Of a DNA stretch of 64,000 bases, positions 2,566 to 64,000 are shown one piece after another. The position numbers and the translations under genes are program-made. Below the pieces are notes generated by a model. It ran no database searches and had not been told where the DNA came from. It was given only the letters and a program-made list of their open reading frames with translations. Each line of letters opens with the position of its first letter. The stretch's first letter is position 1. Source of the stretch: a virus (taxonomy: Duplodnaviria > Heunggongvirae > Uroviricota > Caudoviricetes); the IMG/VR virus record IMGVR_UViG_2878528002_000001, positions 34,473-98,472 of that record; one strand, 5' to 3'.

Positions 2566-3567
2566 TTAAGATACGACAACTTTTACGATGTCTTTTGCAC
2601 CACTGGTTTTATGTGTTACTGTTACATAAGTTGTACCAGCTGCAACACCTGTGATTACTCCATCTTTTACCGTTGCGGTTCCAGCAGTTTCAGATGCAAA
2701 ATCACAATCTTTTGCATCGATAGATACATTACTGTATAAACCACCACGAATGCCAATTACAGAAAGAGTAGCGGTTCCTTTTCCTTTAATTGTAACTTCC
2801 GCTGGTGTAACAGCGATATCTGAGATGGCAACATCACTTTCTGCATCTGGAACTTCTGTTACATATGCATAAACAGTACCATCAGAACAAGAAGCACCTT
2901 CTACAGCAAGAGCATCACCCTCGATAGAGAAGGAAGAAACACCTTCAGCTTCCAGAGAAAGGTCAAATGTACCGTTTGGCTGGAATGATGGAATCTCAAT
3001 CTGAACCTGTCCAACTTTTCCTTTTGTGTTATTATACTTATCAGCAGTAAGCACAAGACGCCCGATAAGAGGAGCAGAATCAGCATCAATTGTAATATAT
3101 TTTACAGATTTAGAGAACTTGTATGTAGCTTTAACTGTTGCATCAGCATTACCAACTGTAATTGAATTTCCGGAAGGAAGAACTTCAACAATGCTTCCAT
3201 CTTCTTTTTCTACAAATACTTTTTCCCCTGTTACAGGTGTTTTAGTAAGTGTGCCAACACCTTTTGTAAGTGTTACACATTCCGCAATCTGGAACACATC
3301 ACGAAGTCCTGTAGCGATTGCAGAACCAGTATTTGCTGCGATGTATGCAAGATTCCAATCTGCCATTTCGATAGTTGGAGCAAGTTTACGTCCATATTTG
3401 TATTTGAACAGAGTCTTAGCACCTTTACCACCAGTTACTTCCTGATCTTCCATGGATACAGAAATACTTGTATTAAGAGCTGTTGTACCTGTAAATGCAA
3501 GAGTATCATTCACATAGAAGGCAACATCAGCTACGGATACTAAAAAGTCCTTAGAATTCTTAGCCAT
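2566..3567 (-). CDS. Major tail (tube) protein with C-terminal Ig-like domain
   Basis: 333 aa, Ala/Thr/Val/Gly-rich; C-terminal IAVTPAEVTIKG...TATV..GVITGVAAGTTYVTVT is Big_2-like; module position. Confidence 0.8.
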   Translation of the reverse strand: MAKNSKDFLVSVADVAFYVNDTLAFTGTTALNTSISVSMEDQEVTGGKGAKTLFKYKYGRKLAPTIEMADWNLAYIAANTGSAIATGLRDVFQIAECVTLTKGVGTLTKTPVTGEKVFVEKEDGSIVEVLPSGNSITVGNADATVKATYKFSKSVKYITIDADSAPLIGRLVLTADKYNNTKGKVGQVQIEIPSFQPNGTFDLSLEAEGVSSFSIEGDALAVEGASCSDGTVYAYVTEVPDAESDVAISDIAVTPAEVTIKGKGTATLSVIGIRGGLYSNVSIDAKDCDFASETAGTATVKDGVITGVAAGTTYVTVTHKTSGAKDIVKVVVS

Positions 3568-3614
3568 TTATTTTTCCTCGCTTTCTTATTTTTGAGTAAC
3601 AAAAAAGAAGCAGA

Positions 3615-4394
3615 TCATCCGATCTTGCTTCTAAGTTCATCCTCATTTGCTTTTACATTTGCATATTTATCTGTAACTTCCATACTGGTCATCCAATGCT
3701 GCAATGGTTCTTTAAACGTAACCATTCCGCCCATCTGCCCAGTAAAACAAGCTTCATATGTTTCATGTTTTTGTATACGTTTTATATATCTCCAAAATTT
3801 TCGTATACTTAATTTTTCAACATATTCACTTGGAACAGACAATGCTATTGCAAGTGAATCTATATAATCTTCAGTATCTCCATCTGATTTATTTTTCTTT
3901 GCTTCAAATTCGCGTGCTTTTTCCAACGCGTGATAAGCATCAATATTCATGAATTCGTCTATATCAAAATCCACATCGTTTTGAATGATGAATATGCGCC
4001 GCAAATCATCAAAAATATCATTTGTTATCTCACAACCATTTATAAAAACAGTTAAATCTTCCTCAACATCCATGTTTGCATTTTCACCACACATCAATAA
4101 TAGAAGTTGGCACGACATTTTAAAATAATAAGGAAGTACTGGCATTTTGTATTTAATTGCCACTTCTTCATCTTGTGCTACATATTTTAAAAAATCGAAA
4201 TACCTCATCTTGATAAATTTCTTTTCTGTAAAGGTAGCATCTTTTCGCACGGTAAATGCATGTTGATATTGATTGAATTCCAAAACATTCATCATTTTTA
4301 ACGGATATAATGTAATGAATTTATTATATTTGATTGGCGTATCGAATAATAAATATTTTTTTAAACCTTGCTTAGTTAATTCCACAAGAAACAC
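3615..4394 (-). CDS. Virion morphogenesis protein (putative tail completion or chaperone)
   Basis: 259 aa ORF in the contiguous head-tail operon. Confidence 0.5.
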   Translation of the reverse strand: MFLVELTKQGLKKYLLFDTPIKYNKFITLYPLKMMNVLEFNQYQHAFTVRKDATFTEKKFIKMRYFDFLKYVAQDEEVAIKYKMPVLPYYFKMSCQLLLLMCGENANMDVEEDLTVFINGCEITNDIFDDLRRIFIIQNDVDFDIDEFMNIDAYHALEKAREFEAKKNKSDGDTEDYIDSLAIALSVPSEYVEKLSIRKFWRYIKRIQKHETYEACFTGQMGGMVTFKEPLQHWMTSMEVTDKYANVKANEDELRSKIG

Positions 4395-8444: not shown

Positions 8445-8864
8445 TTATTCAGTGACAACTTTAACTTCTACACCGAGTTTGTTTCCGATAATTGCAGTTA
8501 CTTCCAGATACGGAGCAGCAGCAGAACTATTTTTTACAAGTTTTCCTTCTGCATCGGATTCAAGTTTGTCACCTTTGGCAACGTCTGCCGGAAGTTCATC
8601 GCCATAAACTTCAAGCATTTTTCCGTTAAGTTTTGCAAGATCAAGAACCCTTACATGTTCACCTTTTACGATTTTGTATGTTGGCATATATTCATCATCA
8701 CCACGCTCAATCTGCATGATTACTTTTCCTTTGTTTGCACCAACTGTAAATTTTCCGCCATTTACTTCACCGTAAGCACCATTAAATGTATCTGCGGATG
8801 CTACTGCATCTTCAAATGGGTATTCCCCATGCTCAATCTGACCAATTGTAGAAAATTTGACCAT
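8445..8864 (-). CDS. Capsid decoration / cement protein (YonC-like position)
   Basis: 139 aa between protease and capsid genes. Confidence 0.55.
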   Translation of the reverse strand: MVKFSTIGQIEHGEYPFEDAVASADTFNGAYGEVNGGKFTVGANKGKVIMQIERGDDEYMPTYKIVKGEHVRVLDLAKLNGKMLEVYGDELPADVAKGDKLESDAEGKLVKNSSAAAPYLEVTAIIGNKLGVEVKVVTE

Positions 8865-8934
8865 TTTTAATCCTCCTTATTTTTGACAATAAAAATAGCC
8901 CGGAATTCCGGACTTCTAAGTAATTAATATTTAA

Positions 8935-10176
8935 TTAGAAAATATTGATATCTTCCTCTGTATCTGTTGTTTCTTCTTCACACATCTCGGAGAAGATATC
9001 CTCAACTTCAACTTCCTGATGAGAGTTCTGCTCTGCAATTCTAGCAGCTTCTGCTTCAGCAGCGGCTTTCTTCTGATTTGCTACAATGTTCATACAGATT
9101 TCAGATTTAATAGCTGTGATTTTTTCGTCTACACTATTAAGTTCTTCTTTCTTTTTGCAAGCACTAATTTCAGATTTTAGTTTATCAATATCATCTTTAG
9201 CAACTTCTTGTTCCTCTGAACTAAACTCTGCAAGAGTTTTATCAAGCGCGCTAAGTTTTTCTGCAATTTTCGCTTTAGCGATTTCCTCTTCAAGAATTCG
9301 CATCTCAGCCCAACTTGTTTCCTGATCCTTTTTCATATCATCAAGAAGTTTCTGCATATCTGCAATAGATGCATTCAGCTCAGAAATTTTTGTATCTTTT
9401 TCTGCAAGCTCGACATCTTTGCTCTCAAGCTGAGAATTTAACTCTGAAATCTGTGTTTCATATGATTCAGACTTTTTATTCATTTCTGAAATAGTAGCCT
9501 GAATAGTGGATTTGATTTCGTCCATACTAAATTCCATTTCTTTGTTTTCCTCCTTTTTTTCTTTCTTTTCTGCGATTTCAATAATTACTGCGTCATCATC
9601 CGCCGGTGAGATACTAAGAATAGCTGTTCCGGAAAATGCCATCTCCATTGGACTACGATATTCTCTGGTTGGTTCATCTTCCTCATAAATAATTTCATTA
9701 TTATTTTCAACTGTTCCCATTATTTCAATAGAAGTAGATACAGTTCCAAGTGCAAAATTTTTCCTTACCCATTTAACAAATTTAGGATAACGCTGAGAAT
9801 ATAAATATCCCTCACCGCATAAAACTTCAATATCATTACCGGATTCATCCTGCATTGTCTCGATACTTGCTTTTTCACATGTACCAACGACTTCTGAATT
9901 TTCAAAAGCGGGTTCTTTGAATCCATCTGAATTTGTAAATGCACCTGTTAATCCATGCCCCAAAGGAACTTCTTTAGTATCTTCATCTGCAAATTCGGCA
10001 CAAATTGGCATTCCAATAACAGAATCCATAGCTTTTTCTACATATTCTTTTTTCCAATGTATACCATTTTTATTTGTCTCATCTGGATTGTTATGAATTT
10101 TAAGAAGTGCAATTTTAATTGGGACACGACCATTTTTATTAGCTCGCTTAGAAATTTCGAGGATATTGTTAAACAT
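8935..10176 (-). CDS. Prohead protease-scaffold fusion (YonD-like)
   Basis: N-terminal protease-like region (PLGHG, VSTSIEI, FSGTAIL); C-terminal long acidic coiled coil. Confidence 0.75.
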   Translation of the reverse strand: MFNNILEISKRANKNGRVPIKIALLKIHNNPDETNKNGIHWKKEYVEKAMDSVIGMPICAEFADEDTKEVPLGHGLTGAFTNSDGFKEPAFENSEVVGTCEKASIETMQDESGNDIEVLCGEGYLYSQRYPKFVKWVRKNFALGTVSTSIEIMGTVENNNEIIYEEDEPTREYRSPMEMAFSGTAILSISPADDDAVIIEIAEKKEKKEENKEMEFSMDEIKSTIQATISEMNKKSESYETQISELNSQLESKDVELAEKDTKISELNASIADMQKLLDDMKKDQETSWAEMRILEEEIAKAKIAEKLSALDKTLAEFSSEEQEVAKDDIDKLKSEISACKKKEELNSVDEKITAIKSEICMNIVANQKKAAAEAEAARIAEQNSHQEVEVEDIFSEMCEEETTDTEEDINIF

Positions 10177-32798: not shown

Positions 32799-34088
32799 GT
32801 CAACTACCCACAAGCTAAAGCTTGATGGGCTTGTAGCTCGATTAGACTTCGCAATTACATTTAAGGGCGTAATTGCTTATTCCAAAGCATAAACTACCTA
32901 TCAGGACTAGAGCCAGCCCCTAAAATTCTTTTTCCCTCTGTTAATATATTTTTTGCAGCGTTTATATCTCTATCGTGATGAGTATGACATTCAGGACAAG
33001 TCCATTTTCTTATATATAATGGTTTCTTTCCAGTAATACAACCACAACAAGAACATATTTGAGAACTCGGAAACCATTTATCAATTTTTACAACAGTTCT
33101 TCCTTTATTCTCCGCCTTATATTCCAACATATTAATAAACATAGACCAACCAACATCTGCAACAGATAAAGCTAAATGATGATTTTTCATCATACCTTTT
33201 ACATTCAAATCTTCCAAAGATATAACTTGGTTCTCGTTAGTAATCTTATAAGAGATTTTATGTAAATAATCTTTTCGTTGATTTACAACACGTTGATTCA
33301 ACCTAGCAACTTTCATTTTCTGTCTGTTATAATTATTACTTCCTTTTGTCATTTTACTTAACTTTCGCTGTTCTTTTTTTAGCTTAGGCAAATTTTTTCG
33401 CAATGATTGTAATACAGGAAATTTAATTCCATCAGAACAAATCGCTAAATCAGTTAATCCTAAATCTATTCCTATTTCTTTGTTTACTTTGGGCAAAGTT
33501 TCATCTGTTTCAGCTTCTTTCCAAAGTATAGAAATATAAAACTCGTTAGTAGGTGTCATGGAAATAGTACAAGATTTTACAATTCCAATTTTATGCCTAT
33601 GATTGACAATTTTTATCTTTCCTAGTTTAGGTAGTTTTATTGTTTCATCATCAATAGGAAATCCATTAGCAATCATGGTTTTATAACTATTTTTAGAACA
33701 TTTCTTACTCTTGTATTTAGGAAATCCTTTATTTGGTTGTTTAAAAAATCCAGAAAATGCAGATTGTAAATCAATTTGAGTAAAACATAGAGCTTGTCCA
33801 TCTACTTCTTTCAACCATTCATATTCCTTTTTATAAAAAGCAGGTGTGTTTATCTTGCTTTTCTTGTTTTCTTCGTAATATTTGATATTGTCGGAGAGTG
33901 CTTGATTCCAATACCATCTGCAACAACCAAAAGTTTTAAGTATTAACATTTTTTGTTCATCTGTCGGAAAGCATCTAACTTTATATGCTTTTATATTGTT
34001 CACCTCCTTCAATATAATATTCTCTCTTTGTTTTTTTTATTATTTTATTACAATTCCTCCCATCAGCTAAAACTAATGGGATTCTTTG
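32799..34088 (-). mobile_element. IS200/IS605-family TnpB-only element (1290 bp)
   Basis: LE begins CAAAGAAT then CCCATTAG-N6-CTGATGGG hairpin; RE has the CCCATCAAGCTTTAGCTTGTGGG hairpin and ends TAGTTGAC; removal restores the flanking ORF; no tnpA. Confidence 0.9.
32894..34012 (-). CDS. tnpB: TnpB RNA-guided endonuclease
   Basis: [13 protein letters not shown]; RuvC GIDLG, LEDL, DRDINAA; Zn finger CSCCG/CPEC; all catalytic residues present. Confidence 0.95.
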
Positions 34089-62581: not shown

Positions 62582-62789
62582 TGAAACCGTAGTTTCATAG
62601 GGATTTTGATGCTACATATTGTGGTGTCATTAAATTGAATATACAATATATAGTGGTTGTGAATCTATATATTGTGGTTATGGAACAGCTAGGAACTTGT
62701 TTGGCGACAACCTAGCTGCTCCGATTGAAATATAGGATAAGCTATATTGATATTTAGTATATCAAATCTATTTGACTTATTCAAGTCAA

Positions 62790-63017
62790 GTTTATCTCAT
62801 GTATTATAGAATTCCAAAACTATGAGAGGAAGAGAACGGATTGTAGGCTTGTTTTAGAGATATGTAAATTCATAAGATTCCAAAACCAGAAATCCTTGAG
62901 AACGGGGACTCTGTAGTTTTAGAGGTATGTAAATTCATAAGATTCCAAAACTTTCCACCTGTGAAAGAAGAACACTCGATAGTTTTAGAGGTATGTAAAT
63001 TCATAAGATTCCAAAAC
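62790..63017 (+). CRISPR. Mini CRISPR array: 3 intact 36-bp repeats plus 1 degenerate repeat, 3 spacers (30, 29, 30 bp)
   Basis: GTTTTAGAG(G/A)TATGTAAATTCATAAGATTCCAAAAC at 62851-62886, 62916-62951 and 62982-63017; degenerate copy ending ATTCCAAAAC at 62820. Confidence 0.95.
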
Positions 63018-63029
63018 CTCAAATTACAT

Positions 63030-63240
63030 ATCTTATGAATTTATAGAATGTGAACTAAAAATAGACTAAGAGAAATCTACGTTATTACAAGATAATATAC
63101 CATTGTGTAGCTCTAGCAGTGTCAATATCATTCAAATTTAAACATGCGTTACATTCATATCATGCCTGGCGCAAGTGATTTGAATACTCCAAGACTTGTA
63201 ATAACATTGTCGAAGAGCATGACCGATTTTATATCGAGAA
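63030..63240 (+). ncRNA. tracrRNA-like anti-repeat fused to an IscB omegaRNA scaffold
   Basis: ATCTTATGAATTTA (63030-43) is the exact reverse complement of repeat nt 15-28; CTAAAA (63055-60) pairs repeat nt 2-7; then AGACTAAG..CTACGTT; helix 63081-90/63196-205; ACATTGTCGAAGAG motif; GCTCT/AGAGC pseudoknot-type pair. Confidence 0.88.
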
Positions 63241-63263
63241 TAATTTTATATAAGGAAAATAAT

Positions 63264-64000
63264 ATGAAGTACTTAGATTTTGTATTAATGATTGATAAGA
63301 ATAATCACCCTTGTTGTCCTATTAACAATGGAAAAGCAAGATATTTGTTAAAAAATGATAAAGCAAAAATAATTAATCACGAACCAGTAGTTATTCAAAG
63401 AATTGATGATTATAAATCAGAAAATGAAATAAGAGATATTTTTGAGCTAAAAATTGATAGTGGATATCTGAATATTGGATTTTCTGTTAGCGATAATCAG
63501 CATGAATATTTAGCTGGGCAAGTCGAGCTTTTAACTAAAATGAAAGATCGACTCTATACACGAAGTACTTTAAGAAGAGGTAGAAGAAATAGATTAAGAT
63601 ATCGTAAAAATAAAAATATGGATTATAAAATAACAAATAATCCTACATATAAAAACGGAAATGAGGATGGTTGGTTTGCTCCATCTATTGAACATAAAAT
63701 GGAATCCCATATAAGATTAGCGAAAAAGATTATGTCTTGGATTCCGGTAGATAAGATCATATTAGAAGTTGCGAAATTTGACATTCAAAAATTAAAGGCT
63801 GATGCAGAAGGAAAAAATATATCCGGAAAAGATTATCAAAATGGTGAAATGAAAGGATATGAAAATGCTGCCACCTATGTAAGGGCAAGAGATGAATACA
63901 CATGTCAAATCTGTAAGGATAAAAAAGGTAAAAATGCGTTACCTGGAAAAATACAGGTTCATCATATTATTCCACGAGAGAATGGTGGGTCAGATATTCC
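63264..64000 (+). CDS. iscB: IscB RNA-guided endonuclease (truncated by window end)
   Basis: Hand translation: PLMP-like HPCCP..GKARYLLK; RuvC-I LKIDSG; bridge helix RRGRRNRLRYRK; GWFAPS; RuvC-II LEVAKFD; HNH RDEYTCQIC..HHIIPRENGGSD. AAGGA RBS. Confidence 0.93.
   Translation, partial: MKYLDFVLMIDKNNHPCCPINNGKARYLLKNDKAKIINHEPVVIQRIDDYKSENEIRDIFELKIDSGYLNIGFSVSDNQHEYLAGQVELLTKMKDRLYTRSTLRRGRRNRLRYRKNKNMDYKITNNPTYKNGNEDGWFAPSIEHKMESHIRLAKKIMSWIPVDKIILEVAKFDIQKLKADAEGKNISGKDYQNGEMKGYENAATYVRARDEYTCQICKDKKGKNALPGKIQVHHIIPRENGGSDI

Follow-up and report, generated by a model that had tools for sequence, protein, structure and literature searches.

Why would a phage carry a CRISPR (short palindromic repeats that are clustered and regularly interspaced) array directly in front of an iscB gene, and how would such an array obtain its spacers? 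IscB is a compact nuclease related to the ancestor of Cas9. CRISPR-associated IscBs are seen as snapshots of a transposon nuclease becoming Cas9, and their natural biology is almost unknown. We analysed a locus of this type at the end of a 64,000-nucleotide (nt) stretch of the virus record IMGVR_UViG_2878528002_000001 (the window; C1:34473–98472). The record is a single contig of 174,673 bp with 33.7% G+C. Between window positions 62785 and 64000, a leader repeat in degenerate form is followed by three spacers and three repeats of 36 nt, then by an anti-repeat/omegaRNA and finally by iscB, all on the plus strand. Our results indicate that this is very probably a CRISPR-associated IscB system, a fixed gene of a ~175-kb gut phage, that is aimed at rival mobile DNA.

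Composition of the locus

A preliminary description of the window had listed an array of 36-bp repeats, an omegaRNA and an iscB gene as contiguous and co-oriented, and we found all three on the plus strand. Repeats of the 36-nt sequence GTTTTAGAGGTATGTAAATTCATAAGATTCCAAAAC start at 62851, 62916 and 62982, the first (62851–62886) having one mismatch; the second and third occupy 62916–62951 and 62982–63017. The whole 174,673-bp contig holds no further copies. Each repeat follows a spacer: spacer 1 (30 nt, 62821–62850), spacer 2 (29 nt, 62887–62915) and spacer 3 (30 nt, 62952–62981). Spacers 1 and 2 have the octamer GAGAACGG in common, in the same register (spacer positions 12–19; window 62832–62839 and 62898–62905). 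This may be due to chance, the reading frames being different.

The window ends within iscB and contains its first 245 codons (63264–64000, plus strand). A Shine-Dalgarno-like AAGGAAAA precedes the ATG at 63264, and the gene continues to window-equivalent position 64835. Read to its end in the contig (L001 2264–3835), it encodes an intact protein of 523 aa (P0001), neither frameshifted nor truncated, that has every RuvC and HNH catalytic residue. The protein matched the NCBIfam model guided_IscB (NF040563) over residues 7–333 with 270 bits (cutoff 175) and contains the Pfam domains RRXRR (E 1e-37) and HNH. The solved structures closest to it by sequence are IscBs (E ~1e-24). Its AlphaFold model (predicted local distance difference test score, pLDDT, 77) aligns full-length to IscB structures, the best fold match being the IscB structure 8csz (E 7e-23), and IscB ranks ahead of IsrB, Cas9d and the larger Cas9s. 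By predicted fold, the protein thus appears closer to IscB than to any Cas9.

The residues D65, E168 and HH233-234 and the bridge helix had been pointed out in the preliminary description. In an alignment of 20 homologues, RuvC D65, E168, H326 and D329, HNH H233/H234, N248 and H257 and the bridge-helix arginines R104–R114 were all invariant, and the catalytic motifs align to those of OgeuIscB. Going by these residues, the nuclease should be catalytically intact. The N-terminal PLMP domain aligns from residue 7, its motif reading PCCP in the clade described below. At the position of the Cas9 recognition (REC) lobe there is only an 11-residue insert after the bridge helix and apparently no REC lobe. 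The C-terminus is longer than in ordinary IscBs, and its last ~90 residues are specific to the clade.

The anti-repeat and the omegaRNA

The omegaRNA hallmarks reported earlier correspond to a match of the Rfam family HEARO (RF02033) at 63040–63223 (cmscan, 52.6 bits, E 3e-9). It fails to reach the gathering score (83) owing to the missing 5′ GUCAAC stem, for which the model positions are unmatched, in agreement with the earlier proposal that the GTCAA transposon-end start has been replaced by the CRISPR repeat. The HEARO-type scaffold as a whole spans 63040–63240 (plus strand) and includes pseudoknot elements and a terminal hairpin (63224–63236). In an RNAalifold consensus of 14 loci, 16 of its 39 pairs show compensatory changes.

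The 5′ end of the omegaRNA is an anti-repeat (63030–63060, plus strand; RNAfold and duplexfold), which is separated from the last repeat by 12 bases. It pairs with repeat nt 13–28 in a 16-bp upper stem and with nt 2–8 in a lower stem (UUUUAG:CUAAAA); the fold with the last repeat has a free energy of −16.8 kcal/mol (z −3.3 versus shuffles). The repeat:anti-repeat duplex occurs in all four repeat subtypes (see below), in the same repeat register (nt 14–30). Double compensatory changes were observed at repeat positions 18, 21, 23, 25, 27 and 28; since the pairs were read off the minimum-energy duplex of each sequence, they are biased in favour of pairing. Covariation is cleanest in L142 (IscB 93% identical), which has A25G in its repeat and the corresponding T>C in its anti-repeat. 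Judging from these changes, the partnership of repeat, anti-repeat and omegaRNA is under selection. In place of the ancestral GUCAAC...AGUUGA with AUAGCCUAAG behind it, the locus has GUUUUAG...CUAAAA and then AUAGACUAAG, a change that would split the first omegaRNA helix into a CRISPR RNA (crRNA) and an RNA resembling a trans-activating CRISPR RNA (tracr-like RNA).

Phage carriers and distribution of the array

The virus record is 100% complete by CheckV estimate, a sibling genome (G002) has terminal repeats, and relatives sit on contigs of 82–222 kb. The PHROG families matched by open reading frames (ORFs) of the window include several that are phage-only, besides those of a terminase-like protein, of an exonuclease and of HNH endonucleases. 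The absence of cas genes, first noted for the window, holds for Cas1 and Cas2 throughout the 174.7-kb phage genome; Cas1 was also absent from 10 relatives, and no TnpA (Y1_Tnp) was detected in the phage genome. The preliminary description had further suggested that IscB was domesticated here and is no longer a mobile insertion sequence. This is supported by the lack of TnpA and of the GTCAAC left-end hairpin and by the position of the locus relative to flanking genes, which is constant within sibling groups of phages. On this evidence of gene content and position, the iscB locus is a fixed phage gene and not an insertion sequence.

Is the array a regular companion of this IscB? Among 17 IMG/VR loci whose IscBs are 57–67% identical, 17 had an array of 36-nt repeats with zero to four spacers, ending 231–246 nt before the iscB ATG. 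Three repeat subtypes occur besides that of the present array. A protein search returned a discrete group (44–93% identity, 513–579 aa, full coverage), set apart from ordinary IscBs (≤42% identity, 420–460 aa). Its deep members L138 (50%), L139/L140 (49%) and L141 (44%), as well as L143–L145 (76%), have an array and an anti-repeat omegaRNA in phage-like neighbourhoods. A consistent lack of arrays in close homologues would have counted against a functional association; every member of the group inspected (the 17 loci and L138–L145) has one, down to 44% identity. In a maximum-likelihood tree, the array-bearing group was monophyletic with 100/100 support; the tree rows were hand-picked from the protein search, and arrays were verified for the named loci, not for every tip. 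Together with the compensatory changes and a fast turnover of spacers (see below), this clade-wide conservation of array and anti-repeat indirectly supports the use of multiple guides that had been proposed.

The nearest relatives without an array are IscBs of Clostridia type with ~40% identity. We inspected four outgroup loci, from the Clostridium phage c-st, a Clostridioides genome, an Epulopiscium contig and a Logan contig. None of the four has an array, all four keep the GTCAAC hairpin, and two (L135 and L148) have tnpA or a tnpA remnant beside iscB. The c-st locus (L135; AP008983.1 133642–134994) belongs to a botulinum-toxin-converting phage. It encodes an ordinary IscB, 38% identical to the present one; the omegaRNA of the locus is classical, its tnpA is truncated and it lacks an array. 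In the record, this IscB is labelled no more than a hypothetical protein or HNH endonuclease.

Natural targets of the spacers

When metagenome contigs from JGI/ENA were scanned for the 3′ 20-mer of spacer 2, three of them, with OLNN01000113.1 and OLNZ01000421.1 among the target contigs, proved to contain the entire spacer (29/29), with flanks that are not repeats. Spacer 3 matched the same contigs at 29 of 30 positions, ~7.5 kb from the spacer 2 site; its mismatch, at spacer position 11, is synonymous (TGT/TGC). The spacer 2 site lies inside a 126-aa HU-like DNA-binding gene (phrog_379) and the spacer 3 site inside a small ORF without an assigned function; with their native flanks, the two protospacers occupy L158 5209–5247 and 12775–12814. 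Genes for an HNH endonuclease (phrog_953) and for anti-restriction (ArdC) are located between and around the two sites. To their left are the chromosomal genes ppk, lrgA, lrgB and putP, and the PutP shares 83% identity with its [Ruminococcus] lactaris/Mediterraneibacter counterpart. We therefore conclude from the mobile-element genes and the adjoining chromosomal genes that the target is a mobile element integrated in the chromosome of a Mediterraneibacter-like Lachnospiraceae bacterium. No nucleotide similarity was found between this element and the phage.

No target of the phage's own spacers was found with the exact 3′ 20-mers of all three in IMG/VR or with the spacers in 12 whole sibling contigs, and the array region gave no more than chance-level matches in the phage collection. 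Two spacers of sibling phages matched one 74-aa gene of the sibling L012: L011_s1 at 27 of 30 nt (10/10 amino acids) and L009_s1, on the opposite strand, at 25 of 30 nt (9/9 amino acids). The gene, which has no Pfam family and reads as helix-turn-helix-like, is part of a 1.43-kb cassette (L012 2178–3604) that also encodes SIR2 (PF02146, E 3e-56) and is inserted directly upstream of the array. The cassette is unique among the 12 sibling contigs and absent from the phages bearing the two spacers. Exact searches of IMG/VR for protospacers of L010_s3/L014_s1, L011_s1 and L009_s1 returned only the arrays themselves. A candidate target of L003_s1 in G004 (16-nt exact core, 22/30 overall) was judged not significant, because ~0.6 such matches are expected over all spacers.

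With two of three guides matching an integrated mobile element, the locus would seem to be a functional weapon directed at competing mobile DNA. The matches of spacers 2 and 3, and those of sibling spacers to the cassette of a sibling phage, lend direct sequence support to the earlier proposal of a weapon against mobile elements or phages.

Spacer turnover and spacer gain

Spacer turnover in this clade is fast. L016, L017 and L018, whose omegaRNA and iscB are 98.3–99% identical, have none of eight spacers in common. The array of L002 is a lone repeat with zero spacers, its 99.5%-identical relative L003 has one spacer, and a single internal spacer distinguishes L139 from L140. Between L010_s3 and L014_s1 there are four differences, all at third-codon positions of one frame, in keeping with two alleles of a coding target having been sampled independently.

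How do these arrays gain spacers? Two routes seem likeliest: type II-A adaptation proteins of the host might act in trans, or arrays might recombine with one another. In style the repeats are type II-A, with GTTTTAGAG...CAAAAC ends and a format of 36-nt repeats and 30-nt spacers. The type II-A locus of Thomasclavelia cocleata (L136), which carries cas9-cas1-cas2-csn2, has the same repeat ends and the same 36/30 format. The spacers of Thomasclavelia cocleata gave low-complexity noise only when compared with these phages and so provide no host link. It is conceivable, though we consider it doubtful, that phage IscB arrays gain spacers without cas1 and cas2 of their own by borrowing the type II-A adaptation machinery of the host. 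If true, this would account for the II-A-style 36-nt repeats and 30-nt spacers, and it would amount to a living replay of the coupling of an OMEGA nuclease (named after obligate mobile element-guided activity) to CRISPR adaptation, independent of the Cas9 lineage.

Discussion

We propose that array and omegaRNA would be co-transcribed on the plus strand. After processing, the repeat of every spacer-repeat unit would base-pair with the anti-repeat, which stands in place of the transposon-end stem. The last unit could pair in cis, repeat 3 with the anti-repeat, in which case spacer 3 would be a natural single guide. Loaded with a guide, IscB would be expected to cut matching double-stranded DNA beside a target-adjacent motif. 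The targets would be two genes of the mobile element integrated in the Mediterraneibacter-like Lachnospiraceae chromosome for this phage and, for sibling phages, the accessory cassette (small helix-turn-helix-like gene and SIR2) of another sibling.

Several observations weigh against this interpretation. Spacer 1 and most sibling spacers are without a known target, and the two matches of sibling spacers, at 27/30 and 25/30, concern diverged alleles rather than exact targets. The four protospacer flanks (AATATC, GCAAGC, TGTATC and GAAAAT) give no clear motif; A is found at +4 in 4/4 and C at +6 in 3/4. The targeted element, of which 13 kb were read, may be either a prophage or conjugative. The degenerate repeat lies at the promoter-proximal end of the array, contrary to canonical arrays. 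Moreover, a near-identical repeat was not found in bacterial arrays (best 28/36; Lachnospiraceae arrays were outside the sample), which leaves uptake by host machinery without direct support.

The strongest alternative is that the main role of the system is RNA-guided conflict or homing between sibling phages. Co-infecting relatives would be cut at variable cassettes adjoining the locus, resulting in exclusion or in conversion of the locus by recombination, as with phage homing endonucleases. The two spacers matching the 74-aa gene of the L012 cassette, which their own phages lack, speak for this account, and OMEGA nucleases have a known role in driving homing (PMC13565253, section 5.6). However, spacers 2 and 3 of the present phage target an unrelated integrated element that does not resemble the phage in nucleotide sequence, the 12 whole sibling contigs yielded a single sibling target region, and the targeted sibling itself bears a near-identical IscB locus. 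As the main role we therefore regard sibling conflict as unlikely.

Alternatively, the benefit to the phage might lie in breaking the host chromosome and not in the loss of the element. The matched element is integrated, so cutting it would break the chromosome, and the protospacers share their contig with chromosomal ppk, lrgAB and putP, which lie beside them. Yet both matches fall in mobile-element genes and not in conserved host genes, so that only strains carrying the element would be cut; conserved targets would serve chromosome breaking better, and sibling spacers match phage DNA. Host takeover of this kind appears improbable to us.

A phage dead-Cas9 with tracrRNA has been described as soaking up host crRNAs (PMC10910872), and the phage IscB and omegaRNA might act likewise as an anti-CRISPR decoy for host type II-A crRNAs. 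The type II-A-style repeats of 36 nt and the 30-nt spacers, in the format of the Thomasclavelia array, would suit such a decoy. The intact catalytic residues, the covariation of the anti-repeat with the phage's own repeat, the low identity of the best bacterial repeat (28/36) and the presence in phage arrays of their own spacers with real targets make it very hard to credit. Equally hard to credit is an ordinary transposon-borne IscB lying by chance beside a decaying, non-functional array: the array is short, its first repeat is degenerate and cas genes are missing, but array and anti-repeat are conserved with covariation across a clade of 44–93% identity, TnpA and the left-end hairpin are absent, and exact protospacers exist.

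A weapon against rival mobile DNA, our preferred interpretation, has a parallel in another phage. Seed et al. are said to have reported in 2013 that the Vibrio phage ICP1 carries a complete type I-F CRISPR-Cas system, adaptation genes included, which targets the PLE island integrated in its host. Here, too, the CRISPR system is carried by a phage and its spacers match an element integrated in the host chromosome. Unlike ICP1, the present phage uses an IscB and has no adaptation genes, and any anti-phage role of the targeted element would be hypothetical.

The system also differs from ordinary IS200/IS605 IscB/HEARO elements such as OgeuIscB (7xht/8csz) and CST143 of c-st. These share with it the domain order, catalytic residues and omegaRNA core. 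They take one guide from the left-end flank, their 5′ end bears a GTCAAC hairpin and tnpA frequently lies close by, whereas here the 5′ stem is split into repeat and anti-repeat and the genome is without TnpA. Type II CRISPR-Cas, represented by the Thomasclavelia cocleata array, is similar in its succession of lower stem, bulge, upper stem and nexus-like element. Unlike type II, the present effector has 523 aa with an 11-residue insert in place of the REC lobe, and cas1, cas2 and csn2 are missing.

CRISPR-associated IscBs (CasIscB) were reported by Altae-Tran et al. 2021, as summarized in PMC11610941. DelIscB, which has been characterized and engineered (PMC12660989), corresponds to CasIscB-1 to -3 (PMC12660989; PMC13180657 supplement 3, sheet 2), and for CasIscB-1 to -4 the sources given are viral fractions and digesters (PMC13180657, supplement 3). 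HEARO/IscB genes on viral contigs have been noted as not CRISPR-associated (PMC9755519, section 10). Like CasIscB and DelIscB, the present locus has its array directly upstream of an omegaRNA with an anti-repeat 5′ end and encodes a small IscB, apparently without a REC lobe, and no adaptation genes, and several published CasIscBs likewise stem from viral-fraction metagenomes. DelIscB, however, belongs to a different protein lineage, has 457 aa and has an unrelated repeat in its published scaffold. The present clade is further distinguished from CasIscB/DelIscB by its type II-A-style 36/30-nt arrays, its gut-phage carriers of 80–220 kb and its natural protospacers.

CRISPR-associated IscB is thus already known as a kind; what is new here are the natural protospacers and the spacer dynamics at population level. 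In a literature coverage that was incomplete, we found no paper on this gut-phage clade or on natural targets of any CasIscB; the clade may be among the CRISPR-associated loci of Altae-Tran et al. 2021. The lineage offers a large and diverse set of natural loci in phages, with identified targets and rapid spacer exchange without adaptation genes. With it, two questions come within reach of tests: the purpose of such systems, and the way in which arrays can be fed before they are linked to Cas1-Cas2. It also provides IscB orthologues that are compact and AT-rich and come with crRNA and tracr-like designs ready for use.

The leader and neighbouring genes

The array is preceded by an AT-rich leader (62585–62784, plus strand), in which a repeat search identified two 29-nt direct repeats (62597–62625 and 62650–62678). 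In a leader alignment, the element ATCTATTTGACTTATTCAAG, which ends in TTCAAG right before the first repeat, was shared with L143, L007 and L012. A scan for promoter and terminator consensus sequences gave nothing above shuffles; the leader might act as promoter. The leader also contains paired TATATAGTGGT motifs (window 62597–62678; ~3540–3590 in L002 and L005), which in L002, L005 and L007 form a perfect 15-nt inverted repeat (ACTATATATAGTGGT/ACCACTATATATAGT). These motifs may be the site of a regulator or host factor in the CRISPR leader. The degenerate first repeat follows at 62785–62820 (plus strand). By sequence reading, its 3′ half alone (AGAATTCCAAAAC) matches the repeat, and L143 and L012 also have a degenerate 5′ repeat equivalent.

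Elsewhere in the window, a 372-aa ORF on the minus strand (32894–34012) matches the 'transposase' family phrog_506 (E 1e-125). It probably encodes a TnpB-type OMEGA nuclease, and the phage may thus carry a second family of RNA-guided nucleases. In L143, the array has a short TnpB-like gene (3314–4003; HTH_OrfB_IS605 and Cas12f1-like_TNB matches) ~1 kb upstream, and a gene for a reverse transcriptase (RVT_1, 8841–9884) lies ~2.3 kb downstream of iscB. A 718-aa ORF without a PHROG match is located ~1.2 kb upstream of the array of the present phage (59384–61540, plus strand). The L143 ORF in the corresponding position has a weak GmrSD_N match, and the 718-aa ORF may encode a modification-dependent nuclease.

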